Positions 1,209-19,315 of a stretch of DNA of 64,000 nucleotides are shown in pieces. The notes beneath the pieces are model-generated. The model was not told the DNA's origin. It searched no databases and saw only the letters and a list, made by a program, of their open reading frames with translations. Numbering within the stretch: position 1 is the stretch's first letter; every line of letters begins with the position of its first letter. Source of the stretch: a bacterium (GTDB lineage Bacteria; Zixibacteria; MSB-5A5; GN15; FEB-12). Where the stretch lies: contig JBDRNJ010000031.1 of the NCBI GenBank assembly GCA_043811375.1, positions 18,031 to 82,030 on the forward strand. The letters run 5' to 3'. A program made the position numbers and the translations under genes.

Positions 1209-1217
1209 CGTGTAATC

Positions 1218-2450: not shown

Positions 2451-2505
2451 ACACGTTATCCTTGTTTAAGAATATTGATTGTTTTGTTTAGAAAAAGACT
2501 TAGGA

Positions 2506-2928
2506 TCAGGTCAGCTTAGGCGGACCACGACAGACGAATGTGTCTATGGAAACCGATTCTGGAAGCGAGTCTCCGTCGCACACGCTTGCTGAAGACCTTT
2601 GGCCGACATCGGAACCGTCGACTACTTCGCCACATACACCCAATACATTGACTGGTAATGAGGTGTTTCTATCATACGAACGGGTTCTATGCCAGTAGTC
2701 GATACTTTGGTCGAATGTATGGTGATGATGCCCGTCCTCGTGATGATCCTCAATAGCGTCCGGATCTACATCAACCGGGTGGAGACTTATCTCTATTGGG
2801 AATCCTTGGTCGTCGTGCGAATGGTGGAAATGGACATACGGATAGACTTGGCTGAAGTAAACCAATAAGAGCACCAAAGCCAGCTTTGGCCATCCGTAGC
2901 GCTTGTTTACGTTTGGCGAACTATCCAT
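2506..2928 (-). CDS. Small His-rich membrane/exported protein ending in RGPP (possible metal-responsive leader)
   Basis: Hydrophobic segment, HFHHSH and DHHEDGHHHH, C-terminal RGPPKLT. ATG 2928 preferred over TTG 2937 because of promoter geometry. Confidence 0.6.
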   Translation of the reverse strand: MDSSPNVNKRYGWPKLALVLLLVYFSQVYPYVHFHHSHDDQGFPIEISLHPVDVDPDAIEDHHEDGHHHHTFDQSIDYWHRTRSYDRNTSLPVNVLGVCGEVVDGSDVGQRSSASVCDGDSLPESVSIDTFVCRGPPKLT

Positions 2929-2936
2929 AGAAGGCA

Positions 2937-2964
2937 AATGTAGTCAAGTTTCTCAAATAGTCAA
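2937..2964 (-). promoter_or_regulatory. Sigma70-like promoter
   Basis: TTGACT-16 bp-TACATT, ending 8 nt before ATG 2928. Confidence 0.5.
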
Positions 2965-3000
2965 ACAGAATCCTACTCGTTATAAGGTTTGTAGCTCCCG

Positions 3001-3037
3001 TATGTGTCATATGTTCCAACATATTAGTTCGCACATA
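3001..3037. promoter_or_regulatory. Palindromic operator candidate between divergent metal genes
   Basis: ATATGTT-CC-AACATAT (3009-3024) nested in TATGTG...CACATA. Confidence 0.4.
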
Positions 3038-3084
3038 GTGAATTTGACCTTTTGAGTACCTTGACCATCTGGTATTATTGGTTC

Positions 3085-4152
3085 ATGGCTACTTCAGGTA
3101 CTAAGACACGTGGTTCAGGTGCGTATGTAGTCTCGCTCGCTCTCGTCTCGGCAGCCTTGTTTGGGGCTGCCACCCCGGCAAGCAAGGCGGTGCTTGGAAA
3201 CCTCACGGCATTCCAGTTAGCGGGATTACTTTACCTCGGTGCGGCCTTGGGGGTCCTAACTGTCATGATTCGAAAGCGGTCTTGGCGCCCGCCGTGGGCG
3301 ATGACAGCCAAGAACCAACGAAATCTAATCGGAGCCGTCTTTTTCGGCGGCCTCCTCGGACCGGTGCTTCTACTTTTTGGCTTGCAAATGGCTTCAGCGA
3401 CCTCCGTATCTATGTGGCTGAACCTCGAAATAGTTGCGACGGCGGTTCTGGGGAGGATGTTCTTTCACGATCACTTAGGGCGTTACGGCTGGTTGGGCGT
3501 AGCAGGCATTGTGGCCACCGGAGCTTTGCTCAGTGTCGGAGAAGGTTTGGCTGGTCTTTGGGCTGGCCTTTTGGTTACGGCAGCTTGTACCTGCTGGGGG
3601 TTGGACAACCATTTTACTTCCCTCATCGACGGCATCACGCCCTCTCAAAGCACCTTCTGGAAAGGGCTTGTGGCAGGCTCAGTCAACCTGATATTAGGCC
3701 TCATTCTGCACTCTTACGATGCTTCTGTGACGATCACGGTGGGTGCGCTTGTTATCGGAGTGTTCTCGTACGGTGCCAGCATTACACTGTACATCACCGC
3801 CGCTCAGGGAATGGGAGCCACTCGCGCACAGATGTTCTTCGCCAGTGCTCCATTCTTCGGAGTTGCTCTGTCGGCGATTGCTTTGGGGGAATCAATAACT
3901 GCTCTTCAATTGACCTCTGGCGTCTTGTTGGCCATATCACTGGCCGCTCTCTTTCGAGACAGGCACCATCATGGGCATGTACATGACCCGATGGAGCATG
4001 AACACGCGCACCGTCATGATGACGAGCATCACGATCACGCTCATCCGGAACTCGCGTCGGGGACGCGTAACTCTCACTGGCACGAGCATAATGTGGTCGA
4101 GCACGCCCACCCCCATTGGCCCGACCTTCACCACCGCCATCGGCACAGCTAA
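3085..4152 (+). CDS. DMT/EamA family transporter with His-rich C-terminal tail
   Basis: About 10 TM segments in two EamA repeats. Tail HHHGHVH...HAHPHWPDLHHRHRH. Confidence 0.85.
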   Translation: MATSGTKTRGSGAYVVSLALVSAALFGAATPASKAVLGNLTAFQLAGLLYLGAALGVLTVMIRKRSWRPPWAMTAKNQRNLIGAVFFGGLLGPVLLLFGLQMASATSVSMWLNLEIVATAVLGRMFFHDHLGRYGWLGVAGIVATGALLSVGEGLAGLWAGLLVTAACTCWGLDNHFTSLIDGITPSQSTFWKGLVAGSVNLILGLILHSYDASVTITVGALVIGVFSYGASITLYITAAQGMGATRAQMFFASAPFFGVALSAIALGESITALQLTSGVLLAISLAALFRDRHHHGHVHDPMEHEHAHRHDDEHHDHAHPELASGTRNSHWHEHNVVEHAHPHWPDLHHRHRHS

Positions 4153-4321
4153 ATCTTATTGGGACTTCATAACTGGTTTGGCTGGGGGGAAAGTATGGTG
4201 AGAGTGAGGTTTGGTTCTGACACTGCTGTAAGCTATTCTCTGACAATAGAATATAAAATGGCGGGGGCTACGAGACGATTTCCGCAACTGGGTAATCGAG
4301 AATGTGGCTGCCTAGAGACTG

Positions 4322-6130
4322 TTAGGCTCTCTCCAACTGCAGGAAATGCACGTAACCTGAAGCACCGCCAACGAGGATCGTGACGCCATCAGGGCAGACC
4401 GCACAGCAGTACAGACTTTCATCAATATCGAAATTCATCAGAATCTGCCCCGACTCCAGATCCCAAACCTTCAGGGTCTGATCAGAAGACCCGGAGATGA
4501 CACGGCCGCCGTCGGGCGTCACCGCCAGGGCATTGACCCAACCCGTGTGCCCCTCCAGGGTGCGGATGACTTGCCCCGACTCCAGATCCCAAACCTTCAG
4601 GGTATGGTCCCAAGACCCGGAGATGACACGGCCGCCGTCGGGCGTCACCGCCAGGGCATTGACCCCACCCGTGTGCCCCCTTAGACTCATTAACTCACTG
4701 CCCCCTGCCTGCGTGATGCTGGGGTGCAATAGGCGTAACCAAGCCTGTTTGGCCTCTGACGCCTGATCACGAAGGTTAACGATGTCCGCTTCCCTGCTTG
4801 AAAAAAGACGCGCATAGAGCTGTTCGGCCAGTTGATCCTTGTCCGTCATGAGAATGTGAGCTGCCAGCCGCAGGGCCGATTGTATAAGGCGCAAAACAGA
4901 ATCATCCGGGAAGAAGTCGTAGTCGGATATCAGGCTCTGTAAATCCGTGCTGTTCAGCTTTGCTTGCAGCCATTTGAAATTTTTCAATAAGCGCCGCAGG
5001 GTCTCTGCACGATTAGCGCCTTGGAGATGGTAGCCGACCCATTGACAGGCGTATTGGTTGGGAAGGTTGTAATGATCTTTCCAGGAATCCGCCAGTTTGC
5101 CGTGCACAGAGTGCCCATCCGCCATCTGTGAGATAAGATAGGTTCGAATAACATCGTGCGGGCGAAGAGTTTTCTTATTCAGGTCAAGATTCTGCAGCAA
5201 AGAAAGGTTGGCCAGCCGCAACGCTAAGTCTTCTGTGTCAAGCTCGTCCAATCCCCATAATTGACTCACTACATCAAGCGGTACGTTTTCATCCTCAGGA
5301 AAGATACCCAGGTGCAGGTAGCGTTCACGTCCCTTGGCAGGCAACAGCTCCAAACTGGCACCGACAGTCAGATCGATTGCATCATTACGATGTTCAGGAT
5401 TGTGGCGGTTGAAAGCATCAATCCCCCGCTTGTCGAGCGCCTTGTTGAGGTACGCCACCGCCTCGTCCGCGCTGACGCCTCGTACAATGCGTTCTTTCAG
5501 AGCACTACCAGCCAGGGAAAGTAAGAGCGGCCACTCTCCCATACGAGCTGACAACTCACGGTACGGCTGCAAATCATGGGGACGGCTTTTAAGCTGACCT
5601 ACCAACATCTCCGTGGCCTCGTCTGAAGTCATCTCATCAACCGAGACCAGTGGCATTCCGGTAACCAGATCGCTCCGCCGAGTCGTGACCATCACAGTGC
5701 AACCGCCTACCGCTCGCCTGAGACACTCCAACTCCCTGCGGTTCCAGATATCGTCCAGCACAACCAGGCAATCCTTACCAGCCACCTTACCAGCCACGGT
5801 ATTTATGGCATCCTCTTCGTCCACAAAGGGGGGACGCTCACCGGTCAGCGCCGCGTACAACTTCGCGAGTGTACCCACTACATCCGGCTTCTCACCAAGC
5901 GTGACCTAGAGAATACCATCATTGTAAGCAGTGATAACTTCTTCATTATGACAAAGTGCTGCCGCCAGGGTAGTCTTGCCGAATCCACCGGCACCATACA
6001 GAGCAGTTGTGATGACAACCGGATTCTCCCGATTTTTGTCCAATACTAAGCTAAGAAGCTGGTCGTACTCATTTGGACGCTCCACAAAACCCTCCGGTGG
6101 CTCCGGAGCCATATAGGGTACAAGTCCCAC
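4322..6130 (-). pseudogene. NB-ARC (APAF-1-like STAND) NTPase with WD40 repeats, interrupted by an in-frame TAG and lacking an N-terminal effector
   Basis: Walker A GAGGFGKT in the 5906-6130 part, Walker B LVVLDDIW, PHD (MHD-like) and WD40s in the 4322-5878 part. Both parts share one frame and the junction reads DGIL*VTLGEKP. Confidence 0.8.
4446..4679. repeat. Near-identical 126-bp tandem WD40-coding repeats
   Basis: 4446-4553 matches 4572-4679 except for a few codons (SDQ/WDH, W/G). Confidence 0.9.
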
Positions 6131-6183
6131 TCCGAAGACATATCAAGCTGTGCAGTGGTTATCAATAGGGCGCATTTACGGCC

Positions 6184-6213
6184 TTGCCAACTACCACCCC
6201 CGCACAGTATATT
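6184..6213 (+). promoter_or_regulatory. Sigma70-like promoter of the RM gene
   Basis: TTGCCA-18 bp-TATATT. Confidence 0.45.
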
Positions 6214-6356
6214 CTGGATCACAGTCAGGGATGGAGCGTACGGTCGATTATGGCACAGGTCACAATAGAGAACCCAATTCTAAACTCGCCGTTTGGTGAA
6301 CCGAGTCGTTGTGTTGTATTCGCTAAGAACGTGACGTTCTGGGGAGTCGCATAGGT

Positions 6357-9300
6357 ATGCCTAAACACCCCGTCGAGACTTACCTCAGTGAGCTTCATGA
6401 AATTCGTGCCACCGGCGGTGGCTCGGCTGAAATATCTTACTATGGTGCTTTGGAAGCACTGCTAAACGAGGTGGGAAGGAAGCTTAAGCCCAAAGTTCGT
6501 TGCGTTCATAATCTGGTAAATACCGGTGCAGGGTTCCCCGACTTTGGGTTATATACGGCAAATCAATTCCAGAAAGCCAAGAATGCCGAACCCTTACCGG
6601 GTCAGCTGCCGGAACGCGGCGTGATTGAGGTCAAACCCACCGACGATGATTCCTGGCTCACGGCAAAGGGGACACAGGTCACCAAATACTGGGGGCGTTA
6701 CGGACAGGTACTGGTCACCAACTACCGCGATTTCGTCTTTATCGGTCGAGATGAAAGAGACAAACCAGTGAAGCTGGAGACATTTCGCCTGGCCGACACG
6801 GAGAACGCCTTCTGGGCAGCTACAACTCACCCGCGAAAGACGGCACAGGATAAGGGTGACAGGCTGATTGAGTTCTTGTGTCGCATCATGCAGCACGCTG
6901 CTGCGATTACTGATCCGGAGGACTTAGCCTGGTTCCTGGCGTCGTACGCGCGTGAAGCTAAGGCACGGATTGAAGCCGTGAGCGATCTGCCTGGTCTTGC
7001 TGCTTTGCGCGGAGGGCTGGAAGAGTCACTTGGCTTGAGATTCGAGGGCGAGGAAGGTGAACACTTCTTTCGTGCAACATTGATTCAAACCCTTTTCTAC
7101 GGCGTCTTTTCATCCTGGGTCCTGTGGGCACGCGATAACGGCACCAAAGAAACTGACCGGTTCAACTGGCATGAGGCGGCATGGAATCTCCATGTTCCTA
7201 TGATTGCCGGCTTATTTCAGCAGATTGCCACACCGAATAAACTTAAGCCGCTGGGGTTGGATGAGATCCTCGATTGGACCGGCATGGCTCTTAACCGTAT
7301 AGTACGAGACAAGTTCTTTGAGAAGTTTGAGGAGGAGCAGGCAGTCCAGTATTTCTACGAGCCGTTCTTGAAAGCCTACGATCCTGATCTGAGAAAAAAA
7401 CTCGGCGTCTGGTACACGCCACAGGAGATTGTCAAGTACCAGGTTGCACGTGTGGATACTGTGCTCCGAGAGGAATTAGACATCGAAGACGGCCTGGCTG
7501 ACCCCAGCGTCTATGTGCTCGATCCCTGCTGCGGTACGGGGGCGTATTTGGTGGAGGTGCTGCGCAGCATTCACCGGACACTGAAGGAAAAAGGTGCTGA
7601 TGCTTTGACCGCCCAGCAGCTCAAAAAGGCGGCAATGGAACGTGTCTTCGGATTTGAGATTCTCCCCGCGCCTTTTGTTGTGTCACACCTTCAACTGGGT
7701 CTTATGCTCAGGACTCTCGGAGCGCCCCTTTCTGAGAATGGTAAAGAGCGCGTCGGTGTCTATCTCACAAACGCCCTGACAGGATGGGAGCCGCCCAAAA
7801 GCCCCAAGGACCAATTGGCCTTCCCGGAACTGCAGGAGGAACTCGAAGAGTCTGGAAAAGTCAAACGTGAAGTCCCGATCTTGGTAGTCCTCGGTAACCC
7901 ACCCTACAACGCCTTTGCCGGAACAAGCCCTGCAGAGGAACGGGGCTTGGTCGAGTCTTTCAAGGATGGACTCACTAAACCGGTCAAGGATGGCGGCTGG
8001 GGGATAAAGAAGTTCAACCTCGATGACCTCTATGTCCGCTTCTTCCGCATCGCCGAGCGGCGGATTGTCAAGAGTGGCATGGGAGTAGTCAGCTATATCT
8101 CGAACTTCTCTTACCTTGGCGACCCATCATTCGTGGTCATGCGCCAACGATTCCTTGATGAATTTGACAAGCTCTGGTTCGATTCCATGAACGGTGATAG
8201 TCGGGAGACTGGCAAGAAGACTCCTGACGGGAAACCCGATCCCAGCGTCTTCTCCACAGAGCAGAGCCGCGTAGGCATTCGAGTAGGCACGGCGATCTGC
8301 ACAATGGTTCGCAGGCGCAAGCGTTCAAGAATGCCCACGGTTCGCTTCCGCCACTTTTGGGGAGCGACAAAGCGAGCAGATGTCCTGAACAGCTTGAAGG
8401 TTAAGAAGTTCAATAAGGACTACGACATCTCCGGTCCTAATACAGGAAACAGGTTTTCGTTTCGACCCCAGGTTGTCGACGCTCATTATCTGTCATGGCC
8501 AAAGCTTACTGCGCTGTGTGGCGAAGCACCCAGTAACGGCTTGATGGAGAAACGAGGCGGTAGCCTCATTGATGTGGAGAGACAGGCTCTTGAAAGGCGT
8601 GTGACGGCTTACTTCGATGCGAACCTTGATTGGGAGGGGTACAGGTCACTCGGCTACGGGCTTGAGAAACCGAAGGCAGGTATTGATGATCCCGAGAAAC
8701 TGAGGAAGAAAGCAATAGCAGCAGAACCATATAAGCCACAACATTTGGTCCGGTATTCGGTACGCCCCTTCGAAATACAGTGGGCTTATTACTGCGCCGT
8801 CCCAGGCGTTTGGAATCGTGCGCGACCGAACTACAAGGAGCAATGCTGGGAGGGAAACACATTCATCATAACGCGTCCTGCCGGAGTTGCGAGTGTTGAA
8901 GGAACTCCGCTGTTTTTCACAAGCACCATCGGTGACAACGACTCCCTGCGGGGACATGCCTACTACTTCCCGGTGCAATTTCGCCCGGCCACCAGGAAAC
9001 GAAGGGCAGACAGCGCCTCTGGCAGCTTGGCTCTCGAAATCAAGCCGCAACGGGCCGTGGCCGCCAACCTCTCGAACAACGCACGCGCATACCTGAAATC
9101 CTTCGGCATCTCCAACCCGGACATGAACGCAGAGACAGCGAGCCTCATCTGGATGCACGCGCTGGCCATCGGATACTCGCCTGCCTACCTTTCCGAAAAT
9201 GCCGATGGCATCCGCCAGGACTGGCCGAGAATCCCGCTTCCTGACTCGAAGAAAGCACTCCTGGCCTCTGCCAAGCTCGGCAACCGGGTCGCAGCCTTGC

Positions 9301-9851
9301 TCGATACAGAGAGGGGCTTGTCCGGCGTCACATCTGGTAGGCTTCGCGCAGAACTAAAGACAATGGGGATCGTCTCGCGTGTTGGTGGAGGTAGCTTGAC
9401 TGCGGAGGAAGGCGGCTTCGGCTTGACCGCCGGTTGGGGACACGCTGGAAAAGCTGGCGTCACGATGCCCGGCAGGGGGAAGATCGAGGAGCGGGCCTAT
9501 ACGGGTGAGGAGCTTGAAGCGTTTAACGCTGGGGCAAAGGGACTCGGTCTTACATTGAAGCAAGTGCTTGAGCATCTTGGGAAGAACACGCTCGATGTTT
9601 ATCTGAACGACATGGCGTACTGGAAGAACATTCCAGTCAACGTGTGGGACTACCATATAGGTGGCTACCAGGTCATCAAGAAGTGGCTCAGCTACCGTGA
9701 GAAAAGTCTTCTTGGACGCTCCCTGAAAATGGAAGAAGTCGAATATGTCACCGACACGACACGTCGCATCGCAGCGATCATCTTGTTGCAGCCAACCCTT
9801 GACACCAACTATGAAGCAGTGAAATCGGATACATACGTGTGGAGCGACTGA
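6357..9851 (+). CDS. Fused restriction-modification enzyme: PD-(D/E)xK-like nuclease, N6-adenine MTase and type ISP-like specificity domain (type IIG/IIL-like)
   Basis: PDF...IEVK at the N-terminus, GVWYTP, LDPCCGTG (motif I), GNPPY (motif IV), C-terminal WDYHIGGYQVIKKWLSYR. No helicase motifs. Confidence 0.85.
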   Translation: MPKHPVETYLSELHEIRATGGGSAEISYYGALEALLNEVGRKLKPKVRCVHNLVNTGAGFPDFGLYTANQFQKAKNAEPLPGQLPERGVIEVKPTDDDSWLTAKGTQVTKYWGRYGQVLVTNYRDFVFIGRDERDKPVKLETFRLADTENAFWAATTHPRKTAQDKGDRLIEFLCRIMQHAAAITDPEDLAWFLASYAREAKARIEAVSDLPGLAALRGGLEESLGLRFEGEEGEHFFRATLIQTLFYGVFSSWVLWARDNGTKETDRFNWHEAAWNLHVPMIAGLFQQIATPNKLKPLGLDEILDWTGMALNRIVRDKFFEKFEEEQAVQYFYEPFLKAYDPDLRKKLGVWYTPQEIVKYQVARVDTVLREELDIEDGLADPSVYVLDPCCGTGAYLVEVLRSIHRTLKEKGADALTAQQLKKAAMERVFGFEILPAPFVVSHLQLGLMLRTLGAPLSENGKERVGVYLTNALTGWEPPKSPKDQLAFPELQEELEESGKVKREVPILVVLGNPPYNAFAGTSPAEERGLVESFKDGLTKPVKDGGWGIKKFNLDDLYVRFFRIAERRIVKSGMGVVSYISNFSYLGDPSFVVMRQRFLDEFDKLWFDSMNGDSRETGKKTPDGKPDPSVFSTEQSRVGIRVGTAICTMVRRRKRSRMPTVRFRHFWGATKRADVLNSLKVKKFNKDYDISGPNTGNRFSFRPQVVDAHYLSWPKLTALCGEAPSNGLMEKRGGSLIDVERQALERRVTAYFDANLDWEGYRSLGYGLEKPKAGIDDPEKLRKKAIAAEPYKPQHLVRYSVRPFEIQWAYYCAVPGVWNRARPNYKEQCWEGNTFIITRPAGVASVEGTPLFFTSTIGDNDSLRGHAYYFPVQFRPATRKRRADSASGSLALEIKPQRAVAANLSNNARAYLKSFGISNPDMNAETASLIWMHALAIGYSPAYLSENADGIRQDWPRIPLPDSKKALLASAKLGNRVAALLDTERGLSGVTSGRLRAELKTMGIVSRVGGGSLTAEEGGFGLTAGWGHAGKAGVTMPGRGKIEERAYTGEELEAFNAGAKGLGLTLKQVLEHLGKNTLDVYLNDMAYWKNIPVNVWDYHIGGYQVIKKWLSYREKSLLGRSLKMEEVEYVTDTTRRIAAIILLQPTLDTNYEAVKSDTYVWSD

Positions 9852-10077
9852 TTGAATGATGCCAAACTCGATACCTCCGTTCATGAGCGCGCGTACTAAG
9901 GTTCTTCTTGTTTGAGACGAGCTACCGCCTGAGGGTGGTTTCTGGAAACTCAGTGGGTCAAAACTACTGGTGAGTTTAGGATTATGACTGCTTCTCCGCT
10001 CAGAATCAGATTGAGTGCTCGATTTGTGATTGTCAACCAACTGACAACCTGCTATTCCAGAGGTAGGAGGTAAGCGT

Positions 10078-10857
10078 ATGGGACATATCCGACTCGACCG
10101 ACTACCGAAGACCAGGCGTTGGAAAGAGGTTATTGAGTTACTTCACCAGGGCAGGTCCATTGACGAGTTGGCGCGGGCAACATTCTACGCCGCTCAAACG
10201 GGTTTGTCTCGAATACCCATTGATGCCGGCTTCACTCAGACCCTTACCGTCATATTTGGTTTCATTGACGCTCTCCAATCCAAAACTCCAGTTACCAGTT
10301 TGCGTCAAAAAGGCTTTGCCGTGCCGACGGATGCTTCACTATTTGACTATGTCGGTAGCTTCAAGGCGCGAGCCGAGGACGCAGCAGCGGCTGTCCACGC
10401 GCGATCCGATATCGCTGAAATCGCACGGGATAGTTTCTCGCAAGTTCTGCTGAAATACGCCGGTTCATCGTTGCAGACTCTCTTCGGCGTCGATTCAACT
10501 GATGCGAAACAAGCTTTGCGATCCAACCTCAAGGGGAAGCCACTCGGCTCGACTATGCACGAGTTCTTCGCCACCTTCACTCAAAGGTATCTCAATTACT
10601 ACTTGGGTCGCGAATTGCCTAATCACGTTGGGACCGGCAAGGCGTTTTCAAATGTGGATGGGCATTCGGAGTTCAACAAGGCGTTTGACCTCCATGTCAG
10701 GCAGACAGTGCGGATAGCCGACGAGTTCACTCCGGGTTGGTTTGGCAAGGCACGATATGAGGAGAGGCTCTCGCATAAGGACGTGTCTCGCTTTGCCCAT
10801 ACAGCCTTCAAGAAGATTCGTAGCGAATTTCGGCGAGGTGGAGAGGCTAATGGATGA
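10078..10857 (+). CDS. Hypothetical helical protein starting Met-Gly, probable partner/substrate of the QueC-like enzyme (QatB-analogous)
   Basis: Strong RBS (AGGAGG), starts MGHIRL, and its stop overlaps the next ATG by 8 bp. Confidence 0.7.
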   Translation: MGHIRLDRLPKTRRWKEVIELLHQGRSIDELARATFYAAQTGLSRIPIDAGFTQTLTVIFGFIDALQSKTPVTSLRQKGFAVPTDASLFDYVGSFKARAEDAAAAVHARSDIAEIARDSFSQVLLKYAGSSLQTLFGVDSTDAKQALRSNLKGKPLGSTMHEFFATFTQRYLNYYLGRELPNHVGTGKAFSNVDGHSEFNKAFDLHVRQTVRIADEFTPGWFGKARYEERLSHKDVSRFAHTAFKKIRSEFRRGGEANG

Positions 10858-12682
10858 ACCGGTGGACATCTGGTGCGGTCCGGAGTTACTGCCGAGAAGT
10901 TTCAGTCGAAGGCGCACAGTCCTCCTCAACACAGTCCCCGATTTCCACAACGTCAACCTCCGGATTAAGAATATCACAAAGAAGCTCGCCAAGAATCTGT
11001 CTCCGGTAGTCCTCGATCTCCTCGAAATCGCCAGCTACGTTTATGCGGCGGATCAATCGGTCCGTCGCGGGGGTAGGACGCTACGGGGAGACGGCAAAGA
11101 CTGGCGCAGGGAGTTTGTGTATCACATTCCGGTTCGGCGTCTTGACCTGTGGCAAAGCGAAGAAACATCTGAAGCTCTTGTCAATCTACTGACCTTCCTT
11201 TCAGATGATTTCTATGAGTTCAAGTTTCGAGAGTTGACCAGGGAAGTTGATCCTCAGACATACATTGATTTTGACGAAGGCAGACCGTGGTTTGATGCCA
11301 ACAAGGTCATGCTGTTTTCAGGTGGACTCGACTCCCTGGCCGGTCTATGTGAGAGCGTGAAGGACGACAATCAGAGAATCGTTCTTGTGAGTCATCGCCC
11401 GGCACCGCAAACAGACCATTTGCAGAGAAAACTACTGGCTGATTTCACAGGGTTGACCGAAAGCCAGAAGCGTCTGTTGCATGTGCCGGTCTGGATAAAC
11501 AAAGCTGAGAAACTCACCAAGGACACGCACCAGCGAACCAGATCATTCCTGTATGCTTCATTGGCAGCCTCGCTGGCTCATATGCACAATCTGTCAAAGG
11601 TGTACTTCTACGAGAACGGGATTACCAGTTCGAACCTGGCTATTGCGCCATCGGCTCTTGGAGCTCGCACCAGCAGAACCACGCATCCGCAAGTTCTCAA
11701 GGGCTTTAGCAGACTGCTGTCAGTAATCTTCAATCAAGATTTCTCTGTCGACAATCCGTTCTTCTGGAAGACGAAGGCGGATATCGTCAAGATCATAAGG
11801 GATTGCGGAGCGAAGGATTTGATTCGTCACACGAGCAGTTGTAGTCATGTTAGATCAGGCAACCCATTGGGCAATCACTGCGGTGTTTGTTCCCAGTGCA
11901 TAGGCAGACGGTTGGCGATTCTGCACAACTCCGCGGAAGCCGATGATCCGGAAGAAATGTATCGGGTCAGGATGCCTCTGGACCCAATAACCAAGGACAT
12001 TGAGCGAGCCATGTTGGAGCTAATCATCAAAGCGGCGCGGGACTTCGAGAGTGCCGATGTGGTCAGTTTCTTCGGCCGTTACGGGCAGGCGATGGCGATT
12101 GTGACTGCGCTGGACATGAAATCGGACCCGGCCGCAAACAGGCTCTTGGAGCTGCACAAGCGCCACGGTCAGCAAGTGTGCCAGGTACTCCAGGACATCG
12201 TTGAAACCCACGGAGGACTGGTGGCGCGTGGAGGTGTCCCGGCGAACTCCATGCTAAGCATGATAGCTGAGCAACCAACCAAGACGCCCGCTGTGCCAAA
12301 AGGCTGTATGCCCATTTCCTTGCCGGAGGATACTGTCTGGGAAGACATCACCGTTGAAATTGTCGGCAACGATGCGGCCAAGATATTCATCGGCGATCAG
12401 TATCATGCAGTAACGGCATTTGACATGGGATTCAAGGATCACAAGAAGAACTTACCCAACCGCATTTGGGATCTTCTTTTTGACTTTGCTGAAGCTGGCG
12501 GGACCCTGGCATGGAGTTCGGAAGAAAGAACGGGGCACTGGTACCATAAGGACTTCCAAAGGCTCAGAAACACCCTCAAAGCGTTCTTCGGTCTGACTGA
12601 GGACCCTCTGGCTCCATATGACAAAAAAGTAGGCTACCAAACGCGCTTCAGTATTCTTTACGACCGCACTGCAAAAACCTGA
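10850..12682 (+). CDS. QueC-family (7-cyano-7-deazaguanine synthase-like, QatC-type) protein with extra C-terminal domain
   Basis: DLLEIASYVYAAD, PP-loop SGGLDS, QRTRSFL, ENG, RTTHP and Zn site SC...HCGVCSQC. ATG 10850 is coupled to the upstream stop. Confidence 0.85.
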   Translation: MDEPVDIWCGPELLPRSFSRRRTVLLNTVPDFHNVNLRIKNITKKLAKNLSPVVLDLLEIASYVYAADQSVRRGGRTLRGDGKDWRREFVYHIPVRRLDLWQSEETSEALVNLLTFLSDDFYEFKFRELTREVDPQTYIDFDEGRPWFDANKVMLFSGGLDSLAGLCESVKDDNQRIVLVSHRPAPQTDHLQRKLLADFTGLTESQKRLLHVPVWINKAEKLTKDTHQRTRSFLYASLAASLAHMHNLSKVYFYENGITSSNLAIAPSALGARTSRTTHPQVLKGFSRLLSVIFNQDFSVDNPFFWKTKADIVKIIRDCGAKDLIRHTSSCSHVRSGNPLGNHCGVCSQCIGRRLAILHNSAEADDPEEMYRVRMPLDPITKDIERAMLELIIKAARDFESADVVSFFGRYGQAMAIVTALDMKSDPAANRLLELHKRHGQQVCQVLQDIVETHGGLVARGGVPANSMLSMIAEQPTKTPAVPKGCMPISLPEDTVWEDITVEIVGNDAAKIFIGDQYHAVTAFDMGFKDHKKNLPNRIWDLLFDFAEAGGTLAWSSEERTGHWYHKDFQRLRNTLKAFFGLTEDPLAPYDKKVGYQTRFSILYDRTAKT

Positions 12683-12865
12683 TCGCCGAAATATCGACGG
12701 ATCACCGCAATCCACTCTGAAAAATAGTTAGCTCTCTAATCTCCCGTTGCACTGTGTAATACGGGAGACGTCTGTCCGATTCAGGTGTTTTTTCTCGCCT
12801 CAGCGAAATTTCGCCAAAGAAATACGAAGGACAAAATGATTGGCGAAAGCAAAACGGCATGACCC

Positions 12866-13135
12866 TTGTGGTCGAGGTCCGGAAGGTGCCTTCAACGCCA
12901 ATCTGCCTTCCGGACCTTTTTTGCTTTGGAGCTGGATTTGGCACTTGTTTCCAAAGATTCGTGGCAAGAAGGGGAAGACCCGCCCCGGCCGGAGAAGAAC
13001 CGTGTCGAGTTCGTGGCTTTTCAAGGTCGTCAGGTAACGCAGGTTGAATACGCGGAAATCTGCCGGAATCTGGCGGAGTACTTTGGCATCCTCCGAGCGT
13101 GGCTGGAAAAGGAACGTAGCGGTGAAGAAGAGTAG
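12866..13135 (+). CDS. Small hypothetical protein (true start uncertain, probably shorter)
   Basis: Amphipathic C-terminal EYAEICRNLAEYFGILRAWLEKE directly upstream of the recombinase genes. Confidence 0.4.
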   Translation: MWSRSGRCLQRQSAFRTFFALELDLALVSKDSWQEGEDPPRPEKNRVEFVAFQGRQVTQVEYAEICRNLAEYFGILRAWLEKERSGEEE

Positions 13136-13187
13136 GACTTACTACAGGGGGACTCCCGTCCTATCTTAAACACTGACTTCAGCGGAG

Positions 13188-14297
13188 GTGAAAACAGTGC
13201 AAGTGAATAGCAAAAATGAGAAGATCAAGAGGAAGTACTTCAGGTGGTTGAGGGAGGCAAACGGCCTGTCGGAGCTAACTGTCTGTGCTGTAGAGAAAGC
13301 GATCTGGCTGTACGAGGACTTCACCAATCACGGTGACTTCGCGGGATTCAACCAGAGCAAAGCTGTCAGGCTGAAGAAATGGCTGCTGAGCAGAACCTAC
13401 AGAGGAAAGCCAGTCTCGATCACCACAGTATATCACTACCTGCGTCATCTTAAACGGTTTTTTGTCTGGTTGTCTGGCCAACCTGGCTACAAGTCGAGGA
13501 TAAGTTTAGACAGCGTCTCGTACTTGTCGCTGGAGAAAAAGAAAGTACGAGAGGCAACCGCACCTAAGCGAGTGAAGTATCCTTCCTTGGAGTATGTCCG
13601 GAATCTTGCTGATTCTATCGATGTGAGAAACGAGATTGATCAGAGAGATCGAGCGCTGATTGCATTCCTGCTTCTGAGCGGAATGAGAGACAAGGCCGTC
13701 AGTACTCTCCCCATCGGTTGTTTTGATACCCAGACGCTGGAGATTCAGCAGGACCCGGTAGCAGGCGTTGACACCAAGTTCGGGAAATCCTTCATAAGTG
13801 TTTTGTTCCGCTTTGATGACAAGCTTGTTGAGTATGTGATCAACTGGGTCAAGTACTTGACAGAGACGAAGCTGTTCGCCTCCACTGATCCACTGTTTCC
13901 GCGGAGCAGAGTGGAACAAGTAGAGGGTGGTTTGACTTTCATCTCGCGGCAGGTTGAGGGAGTGTACTGGAAAGGGGCTGGTAGCATCAGACAGATTCTG
14001 AAGGTTCGCTCGGCAAAAGCAGGCCTGAATTATTATCACCCTCACTCGTATCGCCATACGGCTGTGAGTCTGGCTATGAGGTACTGCCGTAACGCTGAGG
14101 AAATCAAGGCAGTAAGTCAGAACTTCGGTCATGACTACATCGGTACTACGATGGTCACCTACGGGACACTGGACGACTTCAGAGTAGAGGAGATCATTAG
14201 AGGAATGGATTTTTCAGCCGGTTGCTGCAAGGTGAACCAGAATCAGGTGATCGAGGATGTGCTGAGACAGCTTGAAAAACTGAAAAAGAACTCTTGA
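13188..14297 (+). CDS. Tyrosine recombinase/integrase
   Basis: Catalytic set SGMR, K (DTKFG), HSYRH, NFGH, TYG. Confidence 0.9.
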   Translation: MKTVQVNSKNEKIKRKYFRWLREANGLSELTVCAVEKAIWLYEDFTNHGDFAGFNQSKAVRLKKWLLSRTYRGKPVSITTVYHYLRHLKRFFVWLSGQPGYKSRISLDSVSYLSLEKKKVREATAPKRVKYPSLEYVRNLADSIDVRNEIDQRDRALIAFLLLSGMRDKAVSTLPIGCFDTQTLEIQQDPVAGVDTKFGKSFISVLFRFDDKLVEYVINWVKYLTETKLFASTDPLFPRSRVEQVEGGLTFISRQVEGVYWKGAGSIRQILKVRSAKAGLNYYHPHSYRHTAVSLAMRYCRNAEEIKAVSQNFGHDYIGTTMVTYGTLDDFRVEEIIRGMDFSAGCCKVNQNQVIEDVLRQLEKLKKNS

Positions 14298-14322
14298 CAT
14301 AGGCGACATATGACGATATATT
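14294..14322 (+). promoter_or_regulatory. Sigma70 promoter for the XRE and serine recombinase genes
   Basis: TTGACA-17 bp-TATATT, with a GACATA direct repeat over the -35 box and spacer. Confidence 0.65.
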
Positions 14323-14332
14323 GGGGTGTACA

Positions 14333-14527
14333 ATGGCTAAGAAGGATTTGATAACAAAGCTCGAAGAGTTTCGGTTGGAGAACAGGATCACTCAGACCGA
14401 ACTGGCGGATATGATGGGAGTGGCATTCGTAACCGTCAATCGGTGGCTGAACGGTCATCAGTACCCGAACCGGATTCAGGAGTACCACATCGAGAAGCTC
14501 CTATCTTCTAAGGGACGCAAGCGATGA
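14333..14527 (+). CDS. XRE-family HTH regulator
   Basis: ITQTELADMMGVAFVTVNRWLNG. ATGA overlap with the next gene. Confidence 0.85.
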   Translation: MAKKDLITKLEEFRLENRITQTELADMMGVAFVTVNRWLNGHQYPNRIQEYHIEKLLSSKGRKR

Positions 14528-16074
14528 AGTGCGTGATCTATGCCAGGGTCTCGTCGAAAGAGCAGGAGCGCGAGGGCTTTTCAATTCCGTCACAACTGAA
14601 ACTCGTGCGAAAATACGCCCGTGAGAACAACCTGGAAGTGGTGCAGGAGTACATCGACGTGGAAACAGCCAAGGCCACGGGGCGAACTGGATTCGGCGAA
14701 ATGTTGGCATACATCAAGGCACCTATGCACGAGTGTCGCGTAATTCTGGTGGAGAAGACAGACCGCCTCTACCGCAATATCAGGGACTGGGTCACTTTGG
14801 ACGAGTATAATGTTGAGGTTCACTTCGTCAAAGAGAACTTCATTCTTTCAAAGGATTCAAAGTCGTCAGAGAAATTTCTTCACGGCATCAAGGTCCTGAT
14901 GGCCAAGAACTACATCGACAACCTCTCGGAGGAAGTGAAGAAGGGAATGCGTGAGAAAGCCGAGCAGGGTGAATGGCCCAACAAAGCACCCTTGGGCTAT
15001 CTGAACAACAAGGAAACCCACCTGCTTGAGGTTGATCCGGACCGTGCTCCAATAATCGCACAGCTTTTTGAATTGTACTCTACTGGACAGCATTCCATCA
15101 CAACTTTACACCAAAGAGCAAAAGAGCTGGGCCTTAAGTACAGAAACTCGAACCGGTATTGCAGCCGAAGCAACATCGAGAGAGTTCTGAAGAACCCGAT
15201 ATATGCCGGTCGATTCGTATGGAAAGGCACCACCTTCCGGGGAATCCACGCACCGATAATATCTGAGACGCTGTTCGAAGAGGTCCGGGCGCGGTTCCGT
15301 AGGAGCGGCAAATCCAAGGCCAACACTCGGAAGTTTGCTTTCAAGGGACTGCTCACTTGTGGCTACTGTGGCTGTGCTATCACTGCCGAACTCAAGAAAG
15401 GGAAGTACGTCTACTATCGGTGCACTAACGGCAAGGGTAAGTGCAAGCAGCCGTACGTTCGCGAAGAGAAGCTTGCTGATACTCTTGCGGAAGTCGTTAT
15501 TCGAGTGCGTATTAGCTCGTCCCAAGCAGGAGAGATAAGAGAGGCTCTGAGGGCCAGCTTCGAAACAGAAAAGGGATATCGGACGAAAGAAGTCGCCAGG
15601 CTGAAGCGTGAACAGGCGCGACTCCAAGGCCACCTTGATCAGACATACCTGGATAAGATTGAGGGACGAATTGACACCGAGTTTTGGAGGAAGACGCACG
15701 ATAGATGGATCAGTGAGCAGAACTTGGTATCAAGCAGGATGGAGGAATTGACGCGCGCCAACAAGAACTACTACGAACAGGGCGTCGATTTCTTAGAACT
15801 CGCCCAAGCAGCCCCCTCGTTATACCTTAGCCAGACAATCGACGAAAAAGCCAAGCTGTTGCGTACGCTACTTTCGAACTGCACGATGAAGGGGGCAACC
15901 CTTTGTCCCACATACAACAAACCCTTCAACTTGGTCGCTGAAGGGGGCGCAGGTGACAAAAAGCTGGGAGACTGGGATTCGAACCCAGATTCTGCGGTCC
16001 AGAGCCGCATGCCCTGCCATTGGACTATCTCCCAGTACCTTAAGACAAATCGGCGACTGCCGCCAAATTCTTAG
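14524..16074 (+). CDS. Large serine recombinase
   Basis: YARVSS catalytic motif, EKTDRLYRN, recombinase domain, Zn ribbon (CGYCG...YYRC...C) and coiled coil. The C-terminus is read antisense through the tRNA. Confidence 0.92.
   Translation: MKCVIYARVSSKEQEREGFSIPSQLKLVRKYARENNLEVVQEYIDVETAKATGRTGFGEMLAYIKAPMHECRVILVEKTDRLYRNIRDWVTLDEYNVEVHFVKENFILSKDSKSSEKFLHGIKVLMAKNYIDNLSEEVKKGMREKAEQGEWPNKAPLGYLNNKETHLLEVDPDRAPIIAQLFELYSTGQHSITTLHQRAKELGLKYRNSNRYCSRSNIERVLKNPIYAGRFVWKGTTFRGIHAPIISETLFEEVRARFRRSGKSKANTRKFAFKGLLTCGYCGCAITAELKKGKYVYYRCTNGKGKCKQPYVREEKLADTLAEVVIRVRISSSQAGEIREALRASFETEKGYRTKEVARLKREQARLQGHLDQTYLDKIEGRIDTEFWRKTHDRWISEQNLVSSRMEELTRANKNYYEQGVDFLELAQAAPSLYLSQTIDEKAKLLRTLLSNCTMKGATLCPTYNKPFNLVAEGGAGDKKLGDWDSNPDSAVQSRMPCHWTISQYLKTNRRLPPNS
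15964..16034 (-). tRNA. tRNA-Gln(CTG), CCA not encoded
   Basis: TGGGAGA TA GTCC AATGGCA GGGC A TGCGG CTCTGGA CCGCA GAAT CTGGG TTCGAAT CCCAG TCTCCCA G folds as a cloverleaf. Confidence 0.95.
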
Positions 16075-16129
16075 CCCGGTCCAACCGACATTGTTTAGAG
16101 CCGGGGGCAGCGGCCGATTCGACAGGTCG

Positions 16130-16157
16130 AATATATAATATCCCGAGTCAATGTCAA
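16130..16157 (-). promoter_or_regulatory. Promoter of tRNA-Gln
   Basis: TTGACA-16 bp-TATATT. Confidence 0.5.
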
Positions 16158-16172
16158 GCTGCGTGCCATAAT

Positions 16173-16826
16173 CTAAACCGCCAGCAGTACCGACCAGTAG
16201 TAAGTTCCATAGTCCAGACGCTTGATGGAAAAGCATGGCGCCAGGATTGACTGCAACTGATCGCGGGTGAAATAGTTCTTCAGGATCACGAACTCGGTGC
16301 CATCCTGCAGTCGGCGGATCTTGAAACTGTTGCCGTGATTGTCGGTTCTGATGATATTCGTCTGCGGGCCTTCTGCCGGGGGGTTGTTGTCAATCATCCA
16401 GATCAGTCCGTTTTTCCTGAGTGGCCGTCGCATCTGTTGAAACAGCCGGTGGTAATCCTGACGAGGATGATGGGAAAACCAGAAACCAAGCGTTACGATG
16501 TCGAAGCCGGCTTCGGCAATCGGCAGGCACTGCAAATCGGCTGTCAGAAAGTCTACCGGCCGGGCGTACTCTTTTTGGCGAGCCTCTGTCAGCATTTCCA
16601 TAGAGATGTCCATAGCTGCGACATAAGCCGCAGTCCGGGAAATCACATGAGTCCAGTAGCCGGTGCCGCAGGCGATATCAACGACTTCCCGGCCATCGAC
16701 CAGATCCATCAACCGGGCCGCATCCCGGTCAATTTCCCGCCTGCGATCCGGAACATCCCGATAGTATATCTGTTCGTATTCCGGTGCTCGCGCCCGGTAG
16801 TAATCTTCAGTGTTGGCATCATTCAT
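16173..16826 (-). CDS. Class I SAM-dependent methyltransferase
   Basis: VVDIACGTG motif I. Confidence 0.85.
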   Translation of the reverse strand: MNDANTEDYYRARAPEYEQIYYRDVPDRRREIDRDAARLMDLVDGREVVDIACGTGYWTHVISRTAAYVAAMDISMEMLTEARQKEYARPVDFLTADLQCLPIAEAGFDIVTLGFWFSHHPRQDYHRLFQQMRRPLRKNGLIWMIDNNPPAEGPQTNIIRTDNHGNSFKIRRLQDGTEFVILKNYFTRDQLQSILAPCFSIKRLDYGTYYWSVLLAV

Positions 16827-17439
16827 GTTTCTTGACTATTGCCTCCGCCAGCAGCCGCCCTATTTCGTCGGCTCGCTTCAAAGTGTCGGGGCAGTCGGCA
16901 GCGCTGCCCGATCTGGTGAACCGGGGTGAACTATAGGTGAGTACACCCTGGTTGTCTACCTCCACCCACTTGAAAAAACCGGCTACGACTCGTCTCGCTC
17001 CCTCGAACCATCCCCGTCGGCCGCCCACCAGCACCATGGCTCCGGGACGACTACGGTCAAGTATGCGGATGAAATCATGTTGGGGGTCGACGTTGTTGAA
17101 ATCGGGCGGACGGAAACAGTTACAACGATCGATAAACATCTTGGCCTGTGCTGACACCGTGTCAAAATACACGGGTGAGCCGAACAGAACGCAGTCGCAG
17201 GCGACTAACCTGGCATAGATATCGGTCAGGTCGTCCTCCAGAAAGCAGAACTTCGGAGTCGGCGCCTCGCCGCACGACTGACAGGGTGCGAAACGCAGTT
17301 CGTTCAGCTTCACAAAATCCGTGCTGATCCGATGTTTGCCGGCCAGGTTGTCCGTGACGGCAGTAGCCAGACGATTGAGAAGAAGGTCGGTAGACGACCC
17401 TTCGACGGGAGATGCCGATATGGCCAGCAGCCTAATCAA
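16819..17439 (-). CDS. Flavodoxin-like / iron-sulfur flavoprotein (NADPH-dependent FMN reductase family)
   Basis: ISASP..GSST, PCQSC...C...DD, GSPVYF, KMFIDR. TTG 17439 is the likely start. Confidence 0.8.
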   Translation of the reverse strand: MIRLLAISASPVEGSSTDLLLNRLATAVTDNLAGKHRISTDFVKLNELRFAPCQSCGEAPTPKFCFLEDDLTDIYARLVACDCVLFGSPVYFDTVSAQAKMFIDRCNCFRPPDFNNVDPQHDFIRILDRSRPGAMVLVGGRRGWFEGARRVVAGFFKWVEVDNQGVLTYSSPRFTRSGSAADCPDTLKRADEIGRLLAEAIVKKHE

Positions 17440-19315
17440 GGTTAGTCTTCTCCAGTTGTTCCAGCTTGGCGTAGAGATCAAGTATCATATCTTCCAGCTT
17501 CCGTTTGCGTGATGACGCCCGGTGAAGCTGCTCCCAGTCGTTGCGGGGGATGTCGGAGCGGATACCCTCATCCAGTTGCCCCAGTTCCTTCTCCAGGTCG
17601 GCGATCTTCGACCTTGTCGACTGAACCCTTCGCTTGTGGCGTGACTGTCGTCGCGACTTCTCCTTGAAAGCCATATAAGCCGCCTTTTGAGATTTGTCGG
17701 TGGTCTTGGCCGGTGGAGTTGTCACGCTTGTTTTTCCCTTGAAGTAGGCATAGTTGCCGTCGAATATCTGCAACGAGGTGTTTTTCAGGTAGAAAATGCG
17801 GCTGATAACACGGTCCAGAAAATAGCGGTCGTGGCTGACGATCAGGCAACTGCCGTCGAATTCCACCAATGCCTTCTCCAGTACTTCGCGGGAGTCCAGG
17901 TCCAGGTGATTGGTCGGTTCATCAAAGATCAGGAAGTTGGCCGGACGGTATAACAGCCGGGCCAGGGCCAGTTTGGTTCTTTCACCACCTGACAGCGCCG
18001 CTACCGGTTTGAGACTGTCATCGCCGCTGAAACCGAAACGACCCAGAAACGAGCGCATACGACCCATTTCGGCGGTGGGGTCAGCGGTCCAGACCGTATC
18101 CAGTACCGTCAACTCCGGGTCCAGGTCAGCCAGTTCCTGGTCGAAGTAGGCGACATCGACGTTGGTCCCCAGCCTGATATCACCGGAGATTGGCGCCAGC
18201 TCACCGCAAAGTGCCTTGAGAATCGTAGTCTTGCCCGATCCGTTGGGGCCGATCAGGCCGACCTTGTCGCCGCGATAGATGTCAAAGGAAGCCCCGGTGA
18301 CAACCGCTGTGGAACCGTAACCGAGAGTAACATTCTCGACCGCCAGCACGTGAGCGAACGAACGACCGGACAGATGCATAGGCAGGTTGGTAGCCTTGCC
18401 TTCTGACCGGGGCGGGGGCAGGCGCTTGATGCGATTGAGGTATTTCAGCTTGGACTGCGCCTGCTTGGTCTTTTGCCCGGCCATATTGCGCCGCACGAAT
18501 TCCTCGATCTTTTTGATCTCCTGTTGCTGGTGTTTGTAGCGGTGTTCATGCAGTCGGCGGCGCTCATCTCTTTGTTTGAGGTAACCGGCAAAGCCGCCCG
18601 CATAGAAATCGACCTGTCCGTGGCTAATCTCCCATACCTGCTGTACCGTAGCCGTCAGGAAAGCGCGATCGTGCGATACAATCAGGTAACTCCTGTCGGT
18701 CTTGCTCAAGTATTCCTCCAGCCACATCGTGGACTCGATGTCCAGGTGGTTGGTGGGTTCATCCAGCAGCAGCAGGGTGCCGTTGCCGGCCAGGGCGCAC
18801 GCCAGACCGGCTCGGTTCTTTTCACCACCTGAAAAATGGCGCAGTAGCTCGATGTGCCGATCAGGTTCAAAACCAAGCCCGGCCAGGATGATATGAACCT
18901 CACTCTCAAAGCCGAAGCCACCCTCCGCTTCAAAGCGGCTCTGCAATTGCCCCAGCCGAGTCAGCGTGGCCCCGTCGGTGGGGGTGACCGCCAGTTGCTG
19001 CTGCAGTGTCTGCATTTGCTGCCGGAGGGTCAGCAGGTCCTGTCTTGCTGAGGCTACGAACTCAAAAAGACTCAGATCGAGATAACGGTTCAGGTCCTGC
19101 TCTACATAGTCGATACGACAGGCTTTGGCTCGAACTACGGTACCGCTATCGGGTCTGATGCGTCCGGTTATGATCTCAAACAACGTGGTTTTGCCGCTGC
19201 CGTTTTTACCGACCAAGCCGACACGATCTTCGTCTCCGACTGTAATACAAATGTTCTCGAAGATTATCTGATCGTCAAACTTCTTGGAGATTTTATCTGC
19301 GGTAAGAAGAGTCAC
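17432..19315 (-). CDS. ABC-F family ATP-binding protein
   Basis: Two ABC domains (GKNGSGKT, GPNGSGKT; FSGGE/LSGGE; DEPTNHLD) and no TM segments. Confidence 0.9.
   Translation of the reverse strand: MTLLTADKISKKFDDQIIFENICITVGDEDRVGLVGKNGSGKTTLFEIITGRIRPDSGTVVRAKACRIDYVEQDLNRYLDLSLFEFVASARQDLLTLRQQMQTLQQQLAVTPTDGATLTRLGQLQSRFEAEGGFGFESEVHIILAGLGFEPDRHIELLRHFSGGEKNRAGLACALAGNGTLLLLDEPTNHLDIESTMWLEEYLSKTDRSYLIVSHDRAFLTATVQQVWEISHGQVDFYAGGFAGYLKQRDERRRLHEHRYKHQQQEIKKIEEFVRRNMAGQKTKQAQSKLKYLNRIKRLPPPRSEGKATNLPMHLSGRSFAHVLAVENVTLGYGSTAVVTGASFDIYRGDKVGLIGPNGSGKTTILKALCGELAPISGDIRLGTNVDVAYFDQELADLDPELTVLDTVWTADPTAEMGRMRSFLGRFGFSGDDSLKPVAALSGGERTKLALARLLYRPANFLIFDEPTNHLDLDSREVLEKALVEFDGSCLIVSHDRYFLDRVISRIFYLKNTSLQIFDGNYAYFKGKTSVTTPPAKTTDKSQKAAYMAFKEKSRRQSRHKRRVQSTRSKIADLEKELGQLDEGIRSDIPRNDWEQLHRASSRKRKLEDMILDLYAKLEQLEKTNLD

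Follow-up and report, generated by a model that had tools for sequence, protein, structure and literature searches.

What unit does an integrase excise when its own gene contains the attachment (att) site, and what enzyme does that unit then encode? The question is raised by a large serine recombinase (LSR) gene in a 64,000-nucleotide stretch of a Zixibacteria genome (GenBank assembly GCA_043811375.1, contig JBDRNJ010000031.1, positions 18,031 to 82,030 of the forward strand), which we call the window. We refer to the genome as G000 and to the contig as C31, so that a window position equals the C31 position minus 18030. The LSR gene runs into a tRNA-Gln gene, and an original prediction paired a GC dinucleotide there (15963-15964) with another at 4261-4262 as the two ends of an 11.7-kb element. 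Its quoted letters are correct. The att-in-integrase design is real and known in outline, from the Dehalococcoides integrase DsiB and from Mx8 IntP, a member of the tyrosine family. However, the pairing at 4261 is probably mistaken. On sequence comparisons, we consider it likely that the unit excised by the window LSR is about 23 kb long, reaches from C31:10911 to window position 15964, and is a composite built by tandem accretion in which 4261 is a passenger scar.

A recombinase gene that ends inside its target

The LSR gene (14524-16074, plus strand) encodes 516 residues in its integrated form. Its codons past about 480 are read from the antisense strand of tRNA-Gln(CTG) (15963-16034, minus strand) and from beyond it. 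The protein scores above cut-off for PF00239, PF07508 and PF13408 (resolvase, recombinase and zinc ribbon) and matches the A118, TP901-1 and SPbeta integrases; its catalytic serine, S10, is invariant across 112 sequences. Against the SCCmec Ccr and XisF equivalogs it reaches 45–106 bits, below the NCBIfam cut-offs of 375–900. The tRNA gene ends in G-CTT with no encoded CCA. Judged by these letters, the island sits at the 3′ end of tRNA-Gln(CTG), with attP about 11 codons before the LSR stop; attR lies at 15959-15967 (plus strand), and its core is probably at 15964-15966.

The same arrangement recurs in relatives. A close LSR is present in 48 of the 160 genomes of the order. At 32 loci examined, the gene runs into a whole tRNA gene in 27 cases, into a tRNA fragment in three and into neither in two, so that the predicted tRNA-antisense end of the integrated enzyme holds for 30 of the 32 loci. 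The targets are Gln, Asp, Asn, Ser and Arg tRNAs, always at the discriminator end. Six database homologues have a taxon label, which in four cases is Zixibacteria. The 34 viral loci contain only distant LSRs (33–63%), and the tails of many are of other, non-tRNA types.

The LSR 3′ end also holds a terminator-like hairpin for the tRNA (15922-15945, minus strand), which is supplied by the element; such a hairpin is visible by eye at 27 of 34 LSR|tRNA junctions. At five loci (L149, L176, L223, L125 and L184) the LSR is reduced to its last 20–25 codons or so, and these hold the tRNA terminator hairpin. We had entertained a programmed deletion about 70 bp into the LSR end, and set it aside since retention of the tRNA terminator is simpler.

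Which far end belongs to the recombinase

On excision, the tRNA-derived end would be exchanged for a short tail stored at the far att site. Tails of the Gln/Ser clade read (L/R)AIVDYFRTAA before the stop; those of Asp-targeting integrases are of the RGLRDDFRNW type. The probable cognate attL of the window LSR lies at C31:10909-10947, about 7.1 kb left of window base 1, and its Gln-type P′ arm encodes LAIVDYFRTAA and a stop. This tail shares a 9-base block with attR, whereas 4261 shares 2 bases. Crossover between C31:10911 and attR, as computed, would release a circle of 23,082 bp in place of the 11.7 kb first proposed. The circle would encode a 491-residue LSR ending in LAIVDYFRTAA, and the tRNA would keep its G-CTT.

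Several lines of evidence point to this far end. A tree of 32 proteins places the window LSR among Gln and Ser(TGA) enzymes (support 100/99) and the Asp LSRs in a separate clade (100/100). Of 136 Asp-type tails, 35 (19 genomes) have a tRNA-Asp in co-orientation no more than 60 kb away, and at least three have a tRNA-Gln(CTG) in such a position (two on the window contig and one in a second genome, G018). Gln-type tails lie within the same distance of tRNA-Gln in at least nine of 38 cases (7 genomes) and of tRNA-Asp in one. For the other tails of both types neither tRNA kind was listed in range. The 38 are 57 matches minus 19 Ser-type matches; the tRNA-Gln comparison left out the tails of about 13 genomes, and the search for tRNA-Asp was confined to the order. 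Moreover, five of 104 distinct tails have an LSR end directly upstream, as in an attP form (a sixth row was a false match). In three of these natural joints a Gln-type end precedes LA(I/V)VxYFRT, and in two an Asp-type end precedes R(G/P)LRD; there is no mixed joint. In G168, a Gln LSR and a single Gln-type tail stand 24.9 kb apart on one contig. Asp-type tails are shown to be genuine attL sites by the congeners G082 and G084: 58 of 60 bases agree between an LSR-free tRNA-Asp flank in the first and the arm of such a tail in the second. At L170, which is 92.9% identical to G000 over 8.4 kb of the right flank, the tRNA flank matches the C31:10911 arm at 9 bases and the 4261 arm at 0. As read from these comparisons, LSR clade, tRNA target and stored tail correspond.

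What, then, is the junction at 4261? Its P′ arm (4261-4315, plus strand) encodes RGLRDDFRNWVIENVAA followed by a stop, and its B-type arm occupies 4189-4260 (plus strand). A degenerate pattern for the motif finds it in 66 of the 160 genomes, with five copies in G000 and often in co-oriented series, and a reversed-pattern control gave 0 matches. Because the motif is conserved across the order, 4261 is a real attL-type junction, and the claim that a conserved, RDDFRNW-type tail is stored there stands. The whole junction, including the 70 or so bases leftward, is homologous in register to junctions in G132 and G042, which lie 9.3 and 15.3 kb from tRNA-Asp; two of its homologues carry AAG where the window has TGG. 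On this comparison 4261 is an Asp-type junction, and we read it as an internal tRNA-Asp-type attL scar.

If 4261 were nevertheless the working attL of an 11.7-kb element, crossover at GC with 15963 would, by computation, leave a tRNA ending in G-CCA and a 497-residue protein ending in RGLRDDFRNWVIENVAA. This arithmetic is weak by itself because 36 of the 100 TGGC sites in window 1-14500 also yield an in-frame tail of 8–25 residues, although an Ala-Ala ending arises solely at 4261. The pairing also draws on three observations that count against a 23-kb unit. The 4261 tail is the nearest to the tRNA and is intact and in frame. Its P′ arm and the Gln-type P′ arm agree at 15 of 27 bases in register, so that cross-use is possible. 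Finally, G018 has only Asp-like tails behind tRNA-Gln, and no Gln-type tail over 26 kb to the contig end. Against the pairing stand the 35 Asp-type tails near tRNA-Asp as opposed to the three or more near tRNA-Gln, the place of the window LSR outside the Asp clade, the lack of a mixed joint among the five natural ones, the homology of the complete junction to Asp-array junctions that have no TGG, and a probable core mismatch, CG at 4261 and CT at 15963. We therefore judge the pairing improbable: 4261 has a tRNA-Asp-type arm, whereas the clade of the enzyme uses the other tail.

The mismatch would follow from where the core probably lies. The first base of GC is G at all 34 real LSR|tRNA junctions (two of 36 rows were false matches), and differs from G in nine of 61 Asp tails and six of 26 Gln tails. 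In G020, G083, G173 and G174, the tRNA flank and the tail alike have A at this position. The base thus seems to derive from the host side, following the host flank in several relatives, and GC is not confirmed as the crossover core. Host-side origin would place the core at +1/+2 or +2/+3, that is, CT or TG for Gln and CG or GG for Asp, and a crossover between 4261 and 15963 would then be mismatched. C31:10911 would share its central dinucleotide with attR at any register in CTGG, and 4261 solely with a GC core, a placement that the host-matched base speaks against. Serine recombinases fail to religate mismatched cores, according to the portion of bioRxiv 10.1101/2025.01.03.631226 drawn on here. 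A crossover in the AAA left of TGG was also considered and dropped because the codon preceding the tail follows the host flank. We found no inverted symmetry about GC at four reconstructed sites (5–9 of 35).

The original prediction also held, probably wrongly, that excision restores the CCA of the tRNA. The cognate end leaves G-CTT, two homologues of 4261 have AAG, and by script only 12 of the 51 tRNA genes in G000 encode CCA (13 with one mis-registered Leu gene); the genome has a gene of the CCA-adding family. CCA follows tRNA-Gln(CTG) in one of 21 LSR-free flanks and tRNA-Asp in 10 of 26. In a more distant family it follows tRNA-Gln(CTG) in seven of eight flanks, where LSR presence was not checked. 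The gain of CCA at 4261 is incidental.

Further observations weigh against a 23-kb unit ending at C31:10911. The Gln subclade alone is weakly supported in the tree (82/60). The closest Gln element, in G106, shares a type IIG gene with the window, and its contig stops before the left end. The 9-base match of L170 is A-rich and repeated in L012, and the left 10 kb of L170 are unlike G000. In G017, G053 and G116 the base before the core is not matched to the host. Related genomes among our counts are not independent. No circle, read joint or exact conspecific empty site was found. In nine read runs only 5–14% of sampled words were present. Four runs on window 2000-18000 returned contigs of relatives and no joint of the 4261 and 15963 ends; C31:10911 lies outside this stretch, so that these runs weigh neither way. 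One contig starts matching at 15959, which is compatible with any A-rich flank. Scanning a genome collection with the C-terminal part of the LSR gave three loci, one of which was mapped for tails and has no far end. To the left of C31:10911, the outer part of the arm alone matches dispersed sequence in relatives. With these points weighed in, we hold it fairly probable that the explanation given here is, as a whole, the best one.

What the stored tail may do

Stored tails show coding-type conservation, as judged from substitution patterns among related genomes. Beyond the att arm and in the LSR frame, synonymous and non-synonymous differences are 0.41 and 0.24 for Asp, 0.48 and 0.33 for Gln, and 0.54 and 0.07 for Ser tails, and the synonymous excess is missing from the other two frames. 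The tails stop at a fixed codon by TAA, TAG and TGA. Inside the arm, Asp tails have no synonymous excess (pS 0.07, pN 0.08).

Might the tail have no regulatory role and only supply a stop codon, its conservation being due to common descent and the att site? The integrated form has tails of freely varying length, which suggests that any end may do for the enzyme, and the sampled genomes are related. However, neither the in-frame synonymous excess beyond the arm nor three different stop codons at one position fit such a role, and Ala-Ala is the ending of two tail families that differ in length (11 and 16–17 codons). We think a tail without function very improbable.

The Ala-Ala ending is the clearest protein-level signal. 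It closes 64 of the 95 tails with a stop in range (six of 101 tails had no such stop), as against seven of 1,701 long open reading frames (ORFs) of G000 and none of 120 database LSRs. A terminal Ala-Ala is a signal for ClpX. G000 has clpX, and its tmRNA tag ends in Ala-Ala. The chances seem to us about even that the ending is a ClpXP-type degron present in the excised form only. Against this stand three attP-type tails from other clades (P0043, P0064 and P0020), which do not end in Ala-Ala.

A tail of the same architecture could instead be a structural element of directionality. In that case its DxF/YR(T/N) stretch would pack on the zinc-ribbon domain or on the pocket that receives a recombination directionality factor (RDF), the two forms of the enzyme would differ in integration and excision, and Ala-Ala would be incidental or secondary. 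The aromatic-R-(T/N) core recurs across all tail types. In the SPbeta integrase the extreme C terminus covers the RDF pocket and excision requires F532, and swapping the tail of Mx8 alters site preference (PMC6070905), as far as the portions of these sources drawn on go. The core, however, coincides with a DNA motif, GAAC, so that DNA binding can explain it. This candidate binding motif lies at +18 to +21 in the tRNA arm and at +23 to +26 in the C31:10911 arm, a 5-bp shift, and two of its four bases are present in the 4261 arm. LSR att sites are short and have little sequence in common, and a binding motif is placed 5 bp farther outward in attP than in attB. The lack of a synonymous excess inside the arm of Asp tails also speaks against a structural role. 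We regard a directionality element as rather unlikely; a degron would fit the sequence signal of the tail better.

How would a degron work? LSR tagged with Ala-Ala would have a brief lifetime if its source is the circle or a copy that a later insertion has moved outward. The LSR against the tRNA would lose the tag, and would be controlled there by the convergent tRNA transcript, the helix-turn-helix (HTH) repressor and an excisionase-like gene. More broadly, and only as a tentative proposal that we would not yet bet on, widespread tRNA-targeting serine integrases may add and remove a ClpXP degron by their own recombination. Only the tRNA-adjacent copy would then be stable, and it alone would run an array of integrase-less cassettes bounded by target-specific, tail-coding att arms.

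Arrays, cargo and known systems

Outer array segments mostly have no LSR and end in an arm that resembles the tRNA flank; in G012 an identical hairpin arm stands ahead of the tRNA and of both tails. Such arrays would fit accretion of integrase-less units. In tandem units of cis-mobilizable elements (CIMEs) with integrative and mobilizable elements (IMEs) at a tRNA end, the integrase is lost, att is kept and mobility comes with the neighbour (PMC5704250, in part); these are mainly tyrosine-integrase IMEs and integrative and conjugative elements of Firmicutes. A degenerate Asp-type tail at C31:10955 follows the Gln-type tail at C31:10911 by 44 bp, and in six genomes (here and in G124:C51, G035:C44, G008:C30, G098:C10 and G101:C81) such a tail stands 44–81 bp after a Gln or Ser tail, possibly the trace of a target switch.

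Further series lie elsewhere in G000. Three serial Asp-type tails (C64:88446, 127517 and 134850) stand between metal-efflux, cytochrome-like and regulator cargo; their target tRNA was not found on the contig. Two tRNA-Asp 3′ fragments on C32 (1503 and 17853) have similar following sequence, one of them behind an Asp-clade LSR, which hints at another type of element that displaces the end of the tRNA. Three tRNA-Pro(TGG) calls within 8.5 kb (C19:38951-47404), which have the same 3′ end and altered 5′ ends, look like another tandem island array. A repeat of about 125 bp (L174:13021-13160) has many copies in G000 and relatives.

Window 1-4260 is the in-window part of the outer cargo segment, with metal efflux genes and a drug/metabolite transporter (DMT) gene, and continues left to C31:10909-10947. 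The EamA/DMT gene (3052-4152, plus strand; His-rich end) is the last of this segment. It had been taken for host flank, and is instead patchy array cargo present in 14 of the 160 genomes. Beyond the scar lies an NB-ARC and WD40 (STAND-like) gene (4322-6130, minus strand), a probable pseudogene with an in-frame TAG near 5906. It has no clear N-terminal domain, and homologues occur in two of 159 other genomes. A type IIG restriction-methyltransferase gene (6357-9851, plus strand) is 70% identical to that of the G106 Gln-type element. Next come a 259-residue ORF without a family match and a QueC/QatC-like gene (10078-12682, plus strand; QatC score below cut-off), a pair that recurs upstream of recombinase genes in relatives (G011:C24, G111:C78, G023:C1, G084:C9, G107:C20, G021:C8, G064:C2 and G168:C84). 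Found across elements of different target, the two genes may form a module for defence or DNA modification. These two genes are closest to Asp elements (69% and 56%), and because they are Asp-like whereas the type IIG gene is Gln-like, the body of the element is a mosaic. We rejected a clean chimera of an Asp body and a Gln module, since the type IIG gene is common with a Gln element.

In relatives the usual module order is the 259-residue ORF and QueC-like gene, an HTH and zinc-finger gene, a tyrosine recombinase, an HTH gene and the LSR. The HTH-zinc gene is present in 12 of 12 examined relatives that have the tyrosine recombinase. In G000 we found no convincing match (the best, at an E value of 0.005, falls in another gene, and no match in the whole genome reaches 1e-5), and the excisionase-like slot (12700-13187, plus strand) looks decayed or replaced. 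The window copy may therefore be immobile, and the element stuck. The tyrosine recombinase gene (PF00589; 13188-14297, plus strand) is conserved and a frequent neighbour of the LSR; a sigma70-like promoter (11 of 12 matches) and an XRE-type HTH gene follow (14294-14527, plus strand).

How does this element compare with known systems? Statements on the papers cited rest on portions of each. In Dehalococcoides ssrA islands the serine integrase DsiB always overlaps the att site, and its tandem arrays include islands without an integration module; McMurdie et al. (2011, PMC3146451) propose as a hypothesis that only the circle, or a position behind a neighbouring island, makes DsiB complete. The portion of that paper covered here does not mention a degron for DsiB. 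In both systems the 3′ end of the gene overlaps att and enters the target RNA gene. DsiB, however, targets the T-loop of tmRNA with a direct repeat of about 20 bp and is partnered by DsiA, RecF, ParB and Mom. The window element uses the acceptor end of tRNA-Gln with 2–9 bp of identity, has a tail ending in Ala-Ala, and has tyrosine recombinase, HTH and QueC-like neighbours and an HTH-Zn partner in its module.

In Mx8, attP lies inside int, and integration makes a new 3′ end that changes activity without abolishing it (PMC6070905, PMC4383910); IntP is a phage integrase that has been tested experimentally. In phage BPs, integration strips a C-terminal proteolysis tag, and integrase stability sets integration and excision (PMC3694055). 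In BPs it is the repressor gene that contains attP, and Int retains its tag; the att site of the window element is within the LSR gene, 1.4 kb from the HTH gene. The archaeal suicidal integrases of SSV1, pTN3 and pT26-2 also have att within the integrase gene (PMC8371274), but they are of the tyrosine family and have the gene divided into two large pieces; in the window LSR only about 11–17 terminal codons change. No relaxase was seen in the window element, although no search was aimed at relaxases. Integrons are marked by an IntI tyrosine integrase with attI and folded attC cassette sites; the array boundaries here are LSR attL-type arms that mimic a tRNA end. Among titles and the starts of abstracts, with supplements and most subscription papers outside the scope, we found no publication on an attP-encoded, Ala-Ala-ending tail of a tRNA-targeting serine integrase, and the portion of PMC12884075 covered here holds nothing on tails.

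These tails have practical consequences. By a loose pattern, 105 of 120 database LSR entries of the family carry the integrated, tRNA-derived end, so that mining them for genome-editing tools would take the wrong C terminus and the wrong attP. Clade-specific tails map array boundaries that repeat searches miss. And if the tail is a degron or a directionality element, rewriting its gene would let a serine integrase control its abundance or direction.

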